From assembly GCF_003790525.1 (NCBI RefSeq), contig NZ_CP033635.1: a DNA stretch of 64,000 bases; one strand, given 5' to 3'. The position numbers and the translations under genes were made by a program. Shown here one piece after another: positions 44,521-50,976 of this stretch (position 1 is the stretch's first letter; the number at the start of each line of letters is the position of its first letter). Under the pieces are notes generated by a model, which ran no database searches, was not told the origin of the DNA, and saw only the letters and a list, made by a program, of their open reading frames with translations. This DNA is from Escherichia coli (GTDB taxonomy: Bacteria > Pseudomonadota > Gammaproteobacteria > Enterobacterales > Enterobacteriaceae).

Positions 44521-45708
44521 ATGAACTTATCCCTACGACGCTCTACCAGCGCCCTTCTTGCCTCGTCGTTGTTATTAACCATCGGACGCGGCGCTACGCT
44601 GCCGTTTATGACCATTTACTTGAGTCGCCAGTACAGCCTGAGTGTCGATCTAATCGGTTATGCGATGACAATTGCGCTCACTATTGGCGTCGTTTTTAGC
44701 CTCGGTTTTGGTATCCTGGCGGATAAGTTCGACAAGAAACGCTATATGTTACTGGCAATTACCGCCTTCGCCAGCGGTTTTATTGCCATTCCTTTAGTGA
44801 ATAACGTGACGCTGGTGGTGCTCTTTTTTGCCCTTATTAACTGCGCCTATTCCGTTTTTGCTACCGTGTTGAAAGCCTGGTTTGCCGACAATCTTTCGTC
44901 CACCAGCAAAACGAAAATCTTCTCAATCAACTACACCATGCTCAACATTGGCTGGACCATCGGTCCGCCGCTCGGCACGTTGTTGGTGATGCAGAGCATC
45001 AATCTGCCCTTTTGGCTGGCAGCTATCTGTTCCGCGTTTCCCATGCTTTTCATTCAAATTTGGGTAAAGCGCAGCGAGAAAATCATCGCCACGGAAACAG
45101 GCAGAGCCTGGTCGCCGAAAGTTTTATTACAAGATAAAGCACTGTTGTGGTTTACCTGCTCTGGTTTTCTGGCTTCCTTTGTTAGCGGCGCATTTGCCTC
45201 GTGCATTTCACAATATGTGATGGTGATTGCTGATGGGGATTTTGCCGAAAAGGTGGTCGCGGTTGTTCTTCCGGTGAATGCTGCCATGGTAGTTACGTTG
45301 CAATATTCCGTGGGCCGCCGCCTTAACCCGGCTAACATCCGCGCGCTGATGACAGCAGGCACCCTCTGTTTCGTCATCGGGCTGGTCGGTTTTATTTTTT
45401 CCGGCAACAGCCTGCTAATGTGGGGTATGTCAGCTGCGGTATTTACTGTCGGTGAAATCATTTATGCGCCGGGCGAGTATATGTTGATTGACCATATTGC
45501 GCCGCCAGGAATGAAAGCCAGCTATTTTTCCGCCCAGTCTTTAGGCTGGCTTGGTGCTGCGATTAACCCATTAGTGAGTGGCATAGTACTTACCAGTCTG
45601 CCGCCTTTCTCGCTGTTTATCATCTTAGCGTTGGTGATCGTTGCTGCGTGGGTGCTGATGTTAAAAGGAATTCGTGCAAGACCGTGGGGGCAGCCCGCGC
45701 TTTGTTGA
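44521..45708 (+). CDS. ydeE: MFS transporter
   Basis: 395-aa ORF with 12 predicted TM segments. Confidence 0.85.
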   Translation: MNLSLRRSTSALLASSLLLTIGRGATLPFMTIYLSRQYSLSVDLIGYAMTIALTIGVVFSLGFGILADKFDKKRYMLLAITAFASGFIAIPLVNNVTLVVLFFALINCAYSVFATVLKAWFADNLSSTSKTKIFSINYTMLNIGWTIGPPLGTLLVMQSINLPFWLAAICSAFPMLFIQIWVKRSEKIIATETGRAWSPKVLLQDKALLWFTCSGFLASFVSGAFASCISQYVMVIADGDFAEKVVAVVLPVNAAMVVTLQYSVGRRLNPANIRALMTAGTLCFVIGLVGFIFSGNSLLMWGMSAAVFTVGEIIYAPGEYMLIDHIAPPGMKASYFSAQSLGWLGAAINPLVSGIVLTSLPPFSLFIILALVIVAAWVLMLKGIRARPWGQPALC

Positions 45709-45834
45709 TTTAAGTCGAACACAATAAAAATTTAATTCAGCCTTCGTTTAGGTTACCTCTGCTAATATCTTTCTCATTGAGATGAAAATTAAGGTAAGCG
45801 AGGAAACACACCACACCATAAACGGAGGCAAATA

Positions 45835-45930
45835 ATGCTGGGTAATATGAATGTTTTTATGGCCGTACTGGGAATAATTTTATTTTCTGGTTTTCTGGCC
45901 GCGTATTTCAGCCACAAATGGGATGACTAA
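45835..45930 (+). CDS. mgtS: 31-aa small membrane protein MgtS (YneM)
   Basis: ATG at 45835 preceded by GGAGG; translates to MLGNMNVFMAVLGIILFSGFLAAYFSHKWDD; below the ORF-track size cutoff. Confidence 0.8.
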   Translation: MLGNMNVFMAVLGIILFSGFLAAYFSHKWDD

Positions 45931-45956
45931 TGAACGGAGATAATCCCTCACCTAAC

Positions 45957-45997
45957 CGGCCCCTTGTTACAACTGTGTACAAGGGGCCTGATTTTTA
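45957..45997 (+). terminator. Rho-independent terminator after mgtS
   Basis: GGCCCCTTGT...ACAAGGGGCC stem followed by TGATTTTTAT. Confidence 0.7.
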
Positions 45998-46003
45998 TGA
46001 CGG

Positions 46004-46101
46004 CGAAAAAAAACCGCCAGTAAACCGGCGGTGAATGCTTGCATGGATAGATTTGTGTTTTGCTTTTACGCTAACAGGCATTTTCCTGCACTGATAACGG
46101 A
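46004..46101 (-). ncRNA. mgrR: PhoP-dependent small RNA MgrR (approximate ends)
   Basis: Minus-strand terminator CCGCCGGTTTACTGGCGG plus U8 ending near 46004; PhoP-box-like direct repeat upstream; expected position between mgtS and dgcZ; 5' end inferred from box spacing. Confidence 0.5.
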
Positions 46102-46136
46102 TCGTTGACACAGTAGCATCAGTTTTCTCAATGAAT

Positions 46137-46154
46137 GTTAAACGGAGCTTAAAC
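46137..46154 (-). promoter_or_regulatory. PhoP box (GTTTAA-N5-GTTTAA direct repeat) for mgrR
   Basis: Minus strand reads GTTTAAGCTCCGTTTAAC, matching (T/G)GTTTA-N5-(T/G)GTTTA. Confidence 0.55.
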
Positions 46155-47039
46155 TCGGTGAATCACGTTTTGTTCGTCAATAAACATACAGCGATTTCTT
46201 CCGGTTTGCTTACCCTCATACATTGCCCGGTCCGCTCTTCCAATGACCACATCCAGAGGCTCTTCAGGAAATGCGCGACTCACACCTGCTGTCACGGTAA
46301 TGTTGATATGCCCTTCAGAATGTGTGATGGCATGGTTATCGACTAACTGGCAAATTCTGATACCTGCACGACATGCTTCTTCATCATTATCCGCTTTGAC
46401 AATAATGATAAATTCTTCGCCCCCGTAGCGATAAACCGTTTCGTAATCACGCGTCCAACTGGCTAAGTAAGTTGCCAGGGTGCGTAATACTACATCGCCG
46501 ATTAAATGCCCGTAGGTATCATTAACCAATTTAAATCGGTCAATATCCAACAACATTAAATAAAGATTCAGAGGCTCAGCGTTGCGTAACTGATGATCGA
46601 AGGATTCATCAAGAACCCGACGACCCGGCAATCCCGTCAAAACATCCATATTGCTACGGATCGTCAGTAAATAAATTTTGTAATCGGTTAATGCCGCAGT
46701 AAAAGAAAGCAACCCTTCCTGAAAAGCGTCGAAATGCGCGTCCTGCCAGTGATTTTCAACAATAGCCAACATTAATTCCCGACCACAGTTATGCATATGT
46801 TGATGGGCAGAATCCATTAGCCGAACGTAAGGTAATTCATCGTTATCGAGTGGCCCCAGATGATCAATCCACCGACCAAACTGGCACAGTCCATAAGAAT
46901 GGTTATCCGTTATTTCTGGCTTACTGGCATCTATCGCGACCACGCTGTGAAACATACTTACCAGCCACTGGTAGTGGGCATCGATAGCCTTATTGAGATT
47001 TAACAAGATGGCATCAATTTCCGTTGTCTTCTTGATCAT
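46149..47039 (-). CDS. dgcZ: Zinc-regulated diguanylate cyclase (CZB plus GGDEF)
   Basis: 296 aa from internal ATG (MIKKTTEIDAILLNL...); GGDEF motif RYGGEEF. Confidence 0.85.
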   Translation of the reverse strand: MIKKTTEIDAILLNLNKAIDAHYQWLVSMFHSVVAIDASKPEITDNHSYGLCQFGRWIDHLGPLDNDELPYVRLMDSAHQHMHNCGRELMLAIVENHWQDAHFDAFQEGLLSFTAALTDYKIYLLTIRSNMDVLTGLPGRRVLDESFDHQLRNAEPLNLYLMLLDIDRFKLVNDTYGHLIGDVVLRTLATYLASWTRDYETVYRYGGEEFIIIVKADNDEEACRAGIRICQLVDNHAITHSEGHINITVTAGVSRAFPEEPLDVVIGRADRAMYEGKQTGRNRCMFIDEQNVIHRV

Positions 47040-47293
47040 TGCCACTCCTTTTTCACAGTTCCTTGTGCGCGCTATTCTAACGGGAGAAAAGCAAAATTAC
47101 GTCAATATTTTCATAGAAATCCGAAGTTATGAGTCATCTCTGAGATAACATTGTGATTTGAAACAAAATCAGCAGATAAAAAAGTGTTTAATTCTGTAAA
47201 TTAACTCTGCATTATCGCAATTAAAAGGATGACAAATAGCATAACCCAATACCCTAATGGCCCAGTAGTTCAGGCCATCAGGCTAATTTATTT

Positions 47294-47686
47294 TTATTTC
47301 TGCAAATGAGTGACCCGAACGACGGCCGGAGCGCTTTTCTTATCCAGACTTCCGCTAATGTTGATCATCTGGTCCGGCTGAACTTCTCGTCCATCAAAGA
47401 CTGCCGCAGGAATAACAACATTAATTTCACCGCTCTTATCGCGAAAAACGTAACGGTCTTCTCCTTTGTGAGAAATCAAATTACCGCGCAGTGAAACCGA
47501 AGCGCCATCATGCATGGTTTTTGCGAAATCAACGGTCATTTTTTTTGCATCATCGGTTCCGCGATAGCCATCTTCTATTGCATGAGGCGGCGGTGGCGCT
47601 GCATCCTGTTTTAATCCGCCCTGGTCATCTGCCAACGCATAAGGCATGACAAGAAAACTTGCTAATACAATGGCCTGAAATTTCAT
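47294..47686 (-). CDS. ydeI: Periplasmic OB-fold (YgiW/BOF family) stress protein
   Basis: 130-aa ORF with signal peptide. Confidence 0.8.
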
Positions 47687-47901
47687 ACTGACTCCTTAAT
47701 TGCGTTTGGTTTGACTTATTAAGTCTGGTTGCTATTTTTATAATTGCCAAATAAGAATACTGCCAATTGTTATAAGGCATTTAAAATCAGGCTACTAGAT
47801 GTCAAATATTCAGAGAATTTAACTCACTAAAGTTAAGAAGATTGAAGAGTCTTAAACATATTTCAGAACAATCAGATTTATAAATTTGAAAATTATTATA
47901 A

Positions 47902-48003
47902 CGGAAGAGTATACAAAAAAGTAATTTTGCTGGCGACTGCGAAACGGCATTCGCATTAGCGGTGAAGTTTGCCCTCGCCCAGCTGCTGCAATTACTGCTA
48001 TAA
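47902..48003 (+). pseudogene. ydeJ: Possible 3' remnant of ydeJ (CinA C-terminal-domain family)
   Basis: Short open frame ...AGDCETAFALAVKFALAQLLQLLL* ending convergent to dcp, where K-12 has a full ydeJ; preceded by an in-frame stop and AT-rich sequence. Confidence 0.35.
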
Positions 48004-48047
48004 CGAGGCTGGTCTGGCGATAAATCCAGGCCAGCCATTGGTGGTGT

Positions 48048-50093
48048 TTATACGTTCAAGCCACGATGTTGCAGCATCGGCATAATCTGAGGTGCCTTAC
48101 CGCGCCATTGTCGATACAGGCGTTCCAGATCCTCGCTGTTACCTCTGGAAAGGATCGCCTCGCGAAAACGCAGCCCATTTTCACGCGTTAATCCGCCCTG
48201 CTCAACAAACCACTGATAACCATCATCGGCCAACATTTGCGTCCACAGATAAGCGTAATAACCCGCGGCATATCCGCCACCAAAAATATGGGCGAAATAA
48301 CTGCTGCGATAGCGTGGCGGTATAGCGGGAAGATCCATATTTTCCGCCACCAGCGCCCGCAATTCAAAATCATCGACATCCTGCATTGCTTCGTTTTCTT
48401 CCAGGCAATGCCAGCGCATATCGAGAAGTGCGGCGCTAAGCAGTTCGCTCATCTCATACCCTTTGTTGAACAGGCTGGCATTACGCATTTTCTGTTGCAG
48501 TTCGTCAGGCATTGCTGCCCCGCTCTGATAATGCCGGGCGTAGCGAGCGAATACCTGCGGATGTGTTGCCCAGTGTTCGTTGATTTGCGACGGAAATTCG
48601 ACAAAATCACGCGGCGTGTTGGTGCCGGAAAGCGTGGCATAACGCTGGCGGGCAAAAAGGCCGTGCAGCGTATGACCAAATTCATGGAATAAGGTTATTA
48701 CATCATCCCAGAGTAACAACGCAGGCTCACCGGCAGCGGGTTTCTGATAATTGCAGACGTTATAAATTACCGGATGCGTTTCATTAAGCGTTGATTGCTC
48801 AACAAAATTGCCCATCCATGCACCGCCGCTTTTTGAATCACGGGCGAAGAAATCACCGTAAAATAACGCCAGCCCCACGCCATTATGATCAAAAATTTCC
48901 CACACCCGAACGTCAGGATGGTAGACAGGAATATCAAAACGTTCGACAAACTTAATACCGAAGAGCTGATTCGCGGTCCAGAATACACCTTCATTCAACA
49001 CCGTGTTTAATTCAAAATATGGCTTGAGCTGCGATTCATCGAGATCGAATTTCTCACGTCTTACCTGCTCGGCATAAAATGCCCAGTCCCACGGCTGCGC
49101 GCTAAACCCGCCCTGCTGCTTATCAATAATCGCCTGTATGGAGGCTAACTCATCGCTCGCACGTTGACGCGCCGCTGGAACAATTTCCCGCATAAAGTTG
49201 AGCGCTGCTTCTGGCGTTTTTGCCATCTGATCGGCGATTTTCCATGCGGCATAATGAGGAAAACCAAGCAGTTTCGCCTGCTGCGCGCGGATCTCCACCA
49301 GACGTTGAATGATAGCGCGGGTGTCATTGGCATCATTTTTTTCCGCTCGCATCCAGCCCGCAGTAAACAGTTTTTCACGCGTCGCGCGATCGCACAGTTC
49401 AGCAAGCGCTGGTTGTTGGGTGGTATTCAGCAGCGGAATCAGCCATTTGTTATACAGACCTTTCTCGCGAGCCGCCTCTGCCGCCAGCACAATCTCTTGC
49501 TCACTCATTCCTGCCAGCTGCGCGATATCGTTCACAACCAGACCGCCGGATTTATTTGCTGCCAGTAACCGCTGGTTAAACTGGCTGGTCAGGGTCGCAG
49601 CTTCTGTATTCAGTACTTTTAATTTTGCTTTATCAGCTTGCTTAAGTTTGGCTCCGGCAAGGACAAAACGTTGATGAATCACCTCCACCAGGCGGATGGA
49701 TTCACTATCAAGCCCCAGGGATTCACGGCGCTGCCAGACAGCATCTACCCGCGCGAATAATTCCCCGTTCAGATAGATATCATTCGCAAGTTCCGCCAGT
49801 TCAGCGGAAAACTGTTCATCAAGACGCTGTAATTCATCATTGGTATGCGCCGCAGTCATCGCAAAAAAGACGCTGGTAACGCGGGTAAGTAATTCTCCGC
49901 TTTGTTCCAGTGCCAGAATAGTATTGTTGAAATCAGGTGTTTGCGGGTTAAGCGCGATGGCAGCAATTTCTGCCCGCTTTTGCTGCATTCCCTCATCGAA
50001 TGCCGGGCGATAGTGATGATTGGCAATTTGATCAAAATGGGGAGCCAGATACGGCAGTGTGCTTTGCACAAGGAAAGGATTCATTGTTGTCAT
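48048..50093 (-). CDS. dcp: Dipeptidyl carboxypeptidase II (M3 metallopeptidase)
   Basis: 681 aa from internal ATG (MTTMNPFLVQ...); HEFGH zinc motif present. Confidence 0.9.
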   Translation of the reverse strand: MTTMNPFLVQSTLPYLAPHFDQIANHHYRPAFDEGMQQKRAEIAAIALNPQTPDFNNTILALEQSGELLTRVTSVFFAMTAAHTNDELQRLDEQFSAELAELANDIYLNGELFARVDAVWQRRESLGLDSESIRLVEVIHQRFVLAGAKLKQADKAKLKVLNTEAATLTSQFNQRLLAANKSGGLVVNDIAQLAGMSEQEIVLAAEAAREKGLYNKWLIPLLNTTQQPALAELCDRATREKLFTAGWMRAEKNDANDTRAIIQRLVEIRAQQAKLLGFPHYAAWKIADQMAKTPEAALNFMREIVPAARQRASDELASIQAIIDKQQGGFSAQPWDWAFYAEQVRREKFDLDESQLKPYFELNTVLNEGVFWTANQLFGIKFVERFDIPVYHPDVRVWEIFDHNGVGLALFYGDFFARDSKSGGAWMGNFVEQSTLNETHPVIYNVCNYQKPAAGEPALLLWDDVITLFHEFGHTLHGLFARQRYATLSGTNTPRDFVEFPSQINEHWATHPQVFARYARHYQSGAAMPDELQQKMRNASLFNKGYEMSELLSAALLDMRWHCLEENEAMQDVDDFELRALVAENMDLPAIPPRYRSSYFAHIFGGGYAAGYYAYLWTQMLADDGYQWFVEQGGLTRENGLRFREAILSRGNSEDLERLYRQWRGKAPQIMPMLQHRGLNV

Positions 50094-50229
50094 TTTCTTC
50101 TCCTGAACGCGAGGTGTTCCATAGCGTAGGCTTACTGATAACGGAGTGCAATCTTGCAAACCAGTATTACCCGCTCTTAAGCATCACGTGCTATGTTATT
50201 GACACACAAAAGCGTTGAGGAACAGTGAG

Positions 50230-50976
50230 ATGATCGTTTTAGTAACTGGAGCAACGGCAGGTTTTGGTGAATGCATTACTCGTCGTTTTATTCAACAAGG
50301 GCATAAAGTTATCGCCACTGGCCGTCGCCAGGAGCGGTTGCAGGAGTTAAAAGACGAACTGGGAGATAATCTGTATATCGCCCAACTGGACGTTCGCAAC
50401 CGCGCCGCTATTGAAGAGATGCTGGCATCGCTTCCTGCCGAGTGGTGCAATATTGATATCCTGGTAAATAATGCCGGTCTGGCGTTGGGCATGGAGCCTG
50501 CGCATAAAGCCAGCGTTGAAGACTGGGAAACGATGATTGATACCAACAACAAAGGCCTGGTATATATGACGCGCGCCGTCTTACCGGGTATGGTTGAACG
50601 TAATTATGGTCATATTATTAACATTGGCTCAACGGCAGGCAGCTGGCCGTATGCCGGTGGTAACGTTTACGGTGCGACGAAAGCGTTTGTTCGTCAGTTT
50701 AGCCTGAATCTGCGTACGGACCTGCATGGTACGGCGGTGCGCGTCACCGACATCGAACCGGGTCTGGTGGGTGGCACCGAGTTTTCCAATGTCCGCTTTA
50801 AAGGCGATGACGGTAAAGCGGAAAAAACCTATCAAAATACCGTTGCATTGACGCCAGAAGATGTCAGCGAAGCCGTCTGGTGGGTGTCAACGCTGCCTGC
50901 TCACGTCAATATCAATACCCTGGAAATGATGCCGGTTACCCAAAGCTATGCCGGACTGAATGTCCACCGTCAGTAA
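50230..50976 (+). CDS. ydfG: NADP-dependent 3-hydroxy acid / serine dehydrogenase (SDR)
   Basis: 248 aa from ATG at 50230 (MIVLVTGATAGFGE...), SDR cofactor motif. Confidence 0.85.
   Translation: MIVLVTGATAGFGECITRRFIQQGHKVIATGRRQERLQELKDELGDNLYIAQLDVRNRAAIEEMLASLPAEWCNIDILVNNAGLALGMEPAHKASVEDWETMIDTNNKGLVYMTRAVLPGMVERNYGHIINIGSTAGSWPYAGGNVYGATKAFVRQFSLNLRTDLHGTAVRVTDIEPGLVGGTEFSNVRFKGDDGKAEKTYQNTVALTPEDVSEAVWWVSTLPAHVNINTLEMMPVTQSYAGLNVHRQ

Follow-up and report, generated by a model that had tools for sequence, protein, structure and literature searches.

Introduction

YdeJ from E. coli K-12 (b1537, UniProt P31131) is known as RdsA in Salmonella. It belongs to the same single-domain CinA fold family (PF02464, TIGR00199) as the PncC (YgaD)/CinA nicotinamide-mononucleotide (NMN) deamidases. 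In the intact protein, Pfam family PF02464 covers residues 19-171 (E = 9e-48), which agrees with the original prediction that ydeJ is CinA/PncC-like. Intact YdeJ scores below the cut-off for the PncC equivalog, however (145.6 vs. 212 bits). YdeJ has been described as a decaying and catalytically inactive paralogue of PncC/YgaD that has no NMN deamidase activity and carries Y58F/N60D-type changes in the phosphate-binding and catalytic blocks (PMC3855486). Its relatives in the PDB include 5KOL, 5V01, and 2A9S. (5KOL is essentially YdeJ, and is still labelled "Uncharacterized protein".)

In Salmonella, the ydeJ promoter is repressed by negative supercoiling, and the DNA of a ydeJ deletion mutant is more negatively supercoiled, hence the name RdsA (PMC7387798). 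According to the literature, the gene is present in both Salmonella and Shigella, which indicates that its presence is the ancestral state. RcdA has been reported to bind the spacer between ydeI and ydeJ. We take the gene order ydeI-ydeJ-dcp to be shared by Salmonella, Citrobacter, E. albertii, and E. fergusonii. In the literature on ydeJ/rdsA, we found no paper that reports the loss of ydeJ in E. coli lineages.

YdeJ also has a naming problem. PGAP and the protein family NF002972 name it "2-oxo-tetronate isomerase" (for instance in the K-12-like strain 2FA, L002 2263-2781), and PGAP's product names for the remnant that we describe below are either "2-oxo-tetronate isomerase" or "hypothetical protein". 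In the literature, this activity (EC 5.3.1.35, OtnI) is assigned to b2739 in E. coli, and we found no publication that links EC 5.3.1.35 to YdeJ or to CinA. OtnI is hydroxypyruvate-isomerase-like, while YdeJ is a CinA-domain protein. The name appears to be a mislabel that is spreading over thousands of genomes, or else it is based on other evidence.

Results

The interval between ydeI and dcp

We analyzed a 64,000-nucleotide stretch of E. coli DNA (the window; contig NZ_CP033635.1). Both ydeI and dcp are intact in its list of open reading frames. The left-hand neighbour of the interval, ydeI (47294-47686, - strand), encodes a 130-amino-acid OB-fold stress protein of the YdeI family. It differs from the K-12-like allele at 9 synonymous and 0 nonsynonymous positions, and one protein accession (WP_000671737.1) is common to SMS-3-5 and the K-12-like strain. 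The right-hand neighbour, dcp (48048-50093, - strand), encodes peptidyl-dipeptidase Dcp (2046 nt according to PGAP), and its reading frame ends at 48048.

The interval between the two genes (47687-48047) is 361 bp long. In the K-12-like strain 2FA (L002), the corresponding interval is 837 bp, and it holds ydeJ (519 bp, 172 codons, + strand, convergent with dcp). The measured lengths match those given in the original prediction, namely a K-12 ydeJ of ~170 codons between ydeI and dcp, and only ~360 bp between those genes here.

A three-way alignment of the window, 2FA, and ATCC 25922 contains one clean 475-bp gap with colinear flanks. Breakpoint mapping places the junction at 47923/47924, and the missing segment is 2228-2702 in L002 (2FA). 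What was lost is 35 bp upstream of the GTG start codon of ydeJ, codons 1-146, and 2 nt of codon 147. (Those 35 bp are the end of the ydeI-ydeJ spacer, with the ribosome-binding region included.) The deletion leaves ydeI untouched.

The microhomology at the junction is a single nucleotide (A), flanked by an imperfect match (GCAAAT/GCAT). This points to illegitimate recombination. We rejected a deletion mediated by repeats or insertion sequences, since the microhomology is just 1 nt and there is no mobile-element sequence at the junction.

The window is 99.9% identical to SMS-3-5 over the 1.3 kb tested, and across 4.3 kb just two positions differ. An assembly artefact can be dismissed, since about 1800 independent complete genomes have the same junction (see below). 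One of the two differences from SMS-3-5 lies just upstream of the junction, in a run of A at 47915-47920: the window has A6, while SMS-3-5 and all of the ~1800 genomes with the junction have A7. Among the complete E. coli genomes, no genome (0) matched the 53-nt junction query at 100%. The A6 could be a private homopolymer change, or it could be a sequencing or assembly difference. The other difference is at 46933 in dgcZ (- strand), where the window has A and SMS-3-5 has C. Reading from SMS-3-5 to the window, codon 36 of DgcZ changes from AGA (Arg) to ATA (Ile).

The remnant of ydeJ

The remnant of ydeJ lies at 47924-48003 (+ strand). It holds codons 148-172, which encode FAGDCETAFALAVKFALAQLLQLLL, and the stop codon. 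Its DNA agrees with the 3' end of the K-12-like ydeJ, at the same genomic position, in 75 of 79 nt. The open frame that contains it runs from stop to stop at 47902-48003 and encodes RKSIQKSNFAGDCETAFALAVKFALAQLLQLLL, with TAA codons at 47899-47901 and 48001-48003. As the original prediction would have it, this whole frame encodes a C-terminus convergent on dcp. The homology is real, and it covers 25 codons (47926-48003), not 33: the match to ydeJ starts at 47924/47926, and the frame's first seven codons come from the spacer.

The prediction could have failed here if this frame had shown no similarity to YdeJ. Instead, BLASTP aligned it to YdeJ residues 147-162 (E = 2e-7), and it matched positions 143-172 of the 175 in the YdeJ equivalog model NF002972 (E = 2.6e-7, 30.5 bits). 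The curated cut-off of NF002972 is 201 bits over ~175 positions, far above the remnant's score, while the intact K-12-like YdeJ reaches 329 bits. A Pfam search of the remnant gave no match at E ≤ 1, hence no recognizable CinA domain (~155 residues). Nevertheless, the retained 25 codons correspond to the end of the conserved CinA domain, so they are a leftover of the gene and not pre-existing noncoding DNA. In the colinear alignment, the remnant occupies the orthologous position between ydeI and dcp and is convergent with dcp. The remnant derives from the YdeJ family and is not a functional member of it. Together, the colinear gap and the match to YdeJ residues 148-172 confirm that ydeJ has been cut down by a deletion to a short 3' remnant, as had been proposed from the sequence of the window (the comparison with the K-12 interval being made with the K-12-like strain 2FA).

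The remnant lacks both a usable start codon and a ribosome-binding site, and a stop codon lies in frame shortly before it (the TAA at 47899-47901), so it cannot be translated. (No ATG, GTG, or TTG is in frame ahead of the homologous part.) Partial homology at the syntenic site, together with the loss of the start codon and ribosome-binding site, is what is expected for a pseudogene formed by internal deletion.

Relative to intact alleles, the remnant has 3 nonsynonymous changes and 1 synonymous change in 25 codons, or only four changes in all. At the changed positions, two divergent intact alleles agree with one another. For comparison, ydeI has 0 nonsynonymous and 9 synonymous changes. The DNA identity of the remnant is 94.9%, vs. 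97-99% for the neighbouring genes. The numbers are small, and the pattern is suggestive of drift.

We also considered whether the deletion had made a new gene. A 78-amino-acid antisense reading frame (47802-48038) crosses the junction, and we rejected it as a mechanical reading frame: it has no Pfam match and PGAP has never annotated it.

The spacer and the hairpin

Most of the native spacer between ydeI and ydeJ is retained (47687-47923; 237 of about 275 bp). It aligns colinearly with the K-12-like sequence at an identity of 93.2%, and its GC content is 22-33%. It had been called AT-rich filler in the original prediction. It is AT-rich, but it is the native spacer and not filler. This spacer includes the upstream region of ydeI, and possibly the ydeJ promoter. 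The exact RcdA box (TTGTNNACA) is absent from the spacer, both in the window and in the K-12-like sequence.

Promoter-like hexamers are present on the + strand at 47711-47738 and 47760-47787, upstream of the junction and facing the remnant. Promoter-like sites are no commoner in the spacer than in shuffled sequences, however (3 found vs. 2.2 ± 1.5 in consensus scans). A short transcript from the surviving hexamers across the remnant is conceivable, and nothing here supports it.

Between the stop codons of ydeJ and dcp is a GC-rich inverted repeat (48008-48037), which is retained intact. It is predicted to fold with -25.7 kcal/mol on the + strand (z = -4.9) and with -18.2 kcal/mol on the - strand (z = -3.3). 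The hairpin is conserved in all the alleles that we examined, which are from the K-12-like strain, ATCC 25922, and Escherichia sp. MOD1-EC7003 (see below). A canonical T-tract is missing. The repeat probably serves both convergent genes, ydeJ and dcp, as a structure at the end of transcription, so we view it as a putative terminator. Presumably the hairpin and the control region of ydeI were spared since only those deletions that spare dcp and ydeI persist.

An Rfam scan of 45500-50500 (E ≤ 1) found nothing in 47687-48047. Its sole match was elsewhere: a full-length STnc560 (an Hfq-binding sRNA; 280 bits) at 45924-46137 on the - strand. This match is flanked by mgtS/mgtT and by the 3' end of dgcZ, and it overlaps the small mgtT reading frame on the opposite strand. 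Presumably it is MgrR.

Distribution of the deletion in E. coli

We counted alleles in 5426 complete genomes of E. coli. With the 475-bp deleted segment as the query, the body of ydeJ was present in 3618 genomes. A 53-nt query that can match only across the junction of the 475-bp deletion found 1781 genomes, and a 91-nt query over both junction sites found 1800. Adding these 1800 genomes to the 3618 with ydeJ gives 5418, the full number of genomes in which the locus occurs. At a coverage of at least 80%, the 91-nt query identified 758 genomes with the window's allele, in which ydeI is intact. The deletion is thus not strain-specific, contrary to the original prediction: about 1800 of the 5426 complete genomes have the identical junction, and 758 of them have the window's exact allele.

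Another 53-nt query, across a second junction, found a nested 502-bp deletion in 1038 genomes. This deletion corresponds to 47381-47882 in the window, and it removed codons 1-102 of ydeI along with 196 bp of the spacer. Its carriers include ATCC 25922 (L003 1595-1803), UTI89, strains of ST131, APEC O1, and NRG 857C. In these genomes, both ydeI and ydeJ are pseudogenes. Since they keep the identical ydeJ junction, ydeJ was lost first, and ydeI was lost later, in phylogroup B2. (We assume that UTI89, ST131, and ATCC 25922 belong to phylogroup B2, and that SMS-3-5 and ST648 belong to phylogroup F.) Overall, ~33% of E. coli genomes lack ydeJ, and ~19% also lack ydeI.

A few genomes show other arrangements. 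Strain 2009C_3689 (L007 1-100) has an IS1 inside ydeI and an intact ydeJ. In EC26, the annotated features of ydeI-ydeJ-dcp include an IS5 transposase. The ydeJ body is incomplete in eleven genomes, and dcp alone is matched in a few (such as EC1). A few matches to the locus (2-5 places) also come from plasmid-labelled records, and up to 3 copies occur in some genomes. Mislabelled replicons or duplications may explain these cases.

Another loss of ydeJ

We scanned genome contigs with the codon pattern of the C-terminus of Dcp, and the sole match was Escherichia sp. MOD1-EC7003. In this outgroup-like genome (L004 10540-10690), the 3' end of dgcZ is fused to the last ~14 codons of ydeJ via a CGGT microhomology. 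The deletion is ~2.2 kb: ydeI is gone entirely, as are the greater parts of dgcZ and ydeJ. None of the 5426 complete E. coli genomes has this junction. Because MOD1-EC7003 keeps the tail of ydeJ with a different junction, its ancestor also had ydeJ. Judging from the two junction sequences, this loss is independent of the 475-bp deletion. The same contig also seems to lack ydeE and mgtS, in the stretch from eamA to a sequence that resembles mgrR.

Discussion

Very probably, the remnant is a non-functional pseudogene that was left by a single ancient 475-bp deletion, and this deletion was inherited or recombined through much of the species. Illegitimate recombination, with almost no microhomology, would have removed the end of the spacer, the ribosome-binding site, the GTG, and codons 1-146 in one event. 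The remaining 25 codons of ydeJ would be untranslated and drifting. The deletion allele would then have passed, by inheritance or by recombination, through a large part of E. coli, and the SMS-3-5-like strain that we analyzed would carry the allele of its lineage. In B2, the same allele would later have lost ydeI by the nested 502-bp deletion. From these sequence comparisons, we infer both that there was a single event and that the remnant has no function.

Could the short form be ancestral instead, so that strains of the K-12 type gained ydeJ by an insertion? Short alleles are common (about 33% of genomes), and early-branching lineages of E. coli carry them. But the inserted DNA would have needed to join, exactly in frame, a matching CinA tail that was already there, and ydeJ in K-12 has no flanking mobile-element features or target duplications. 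Also, homologues of ydeJ exist in Salmonella and Shigella, and the differently joined ydeJ tail of MOD1-EC7003 implies an ancestor with the gene. We therefore give an insertion almost no weight. It is somewhat easier to imagine that the remnant has been exapted, with the supercoiling-sensitive promoter of ydeJ surviving and driving a short non-coding RNA through the 80-nt remnant to the hairpin. Such an RNA would lie near the 3' end of dcp. The 237 bp of spacer survive with their + strand hexamers, a strong hairpin follows the remnant, and two independent deletions (in the window and in MOD1-EC7003) keep at least the last 14 codons and the hairpin. Nevertheless, this 3' tail would be retained by chance in any deletion that spares dcp, the promoter-like sites are as common in shuffled sequences, and nothing in the interval matches Rfam. 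The remnant changes at about the noncoding rate, and the B2 strains have lost most of the spacer as well, with the hexamers. Exaptation thus seems quite improbable.

A third alternative, which we consider unlikely though less so than exaptation, is that the loss was adaptive: the removal of RdsA would have shifted supercoiling homeostasis in the ancestor of extraintestinal-pathogenic lineages, and selection would have spread the allele. The more negatively supercoiled DNA of the Salmonella ydeJ/rdsA mutant (PMC7387798) could be read this way. So could the fixation of the allele across about 1800 genomes, the further erosion of the locus (the loss of ydeI in B2), and the independent loss in another Escherichia lineage (MOD1-EC7003). 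However, clonal inheritance alone accounts for the frequency of the allele, and the literature that we found reports no phenotype in E. coli. Intact alleles of ydeJ are only mildly constrained (6 synonymous and 3 nonsynonymous differences), and YdeJ has been described as a decaying paralogue without catalytic activity (PMC3855486). The sporadic insertion sequences and partial copies in other genomes also fit a dispensable gene. On balance, we prefer a single ancient deletion that left a non-functional pseudogene. This is ordinary gene decay, and RefSeq/PGAP already catalogues the remnant as a pseudogene.

On its own, the remnant is minor, being yet another accessory gene that has decayed. Nevertheless, two features make clean phylogenetic markers of a large block of E. 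coli diversity: the junction that these genomes share, and the nested loss of ydeI in B2. They also call for caution in carrying results on RdsA from Salmonella, or on stress resistance by ydeI/OmdA, over to pathogenic E. coli, since about a third of genomes lack ydeJ and about a fifth lack ydeI as well. The remnant also exposes the questionable product name that PGAP gives to YdeJ. A bolder view is that the absence of RdsA/YdeJ, fixed in ~1/3 of E. coli (all the B2 genomes tested and the relatives of the window's type), defines these lineages, that it may alter the setting or buffering of supercoiling, and that the spacer and the remnant might still be transcribed from an orphaned, supercoiling-sensitive promoter. 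We think that this is unlikely.

Comparison with known systems

Compared to K-12 YdeJ, the remnant matches residues 148-172, with 22 of 25 residues identical. It lacks residues 1-147, and with them all of the blocks that are equivalent to the active site of CinA/PncC, as well as the start codon and the ribosome-binding site. The closest annotated counterpart is a PGAP pseudogene in SMS-3-5, ECSMS35_RS29765 (NC_010498.1; L001 2225-2305), which has equivalents in hundreds of genomes. PGAP describes it as [quoted passage not shown], and the record gives no account of the deletion, the junction, or the distribution. It is the same 81 nt in the same position.
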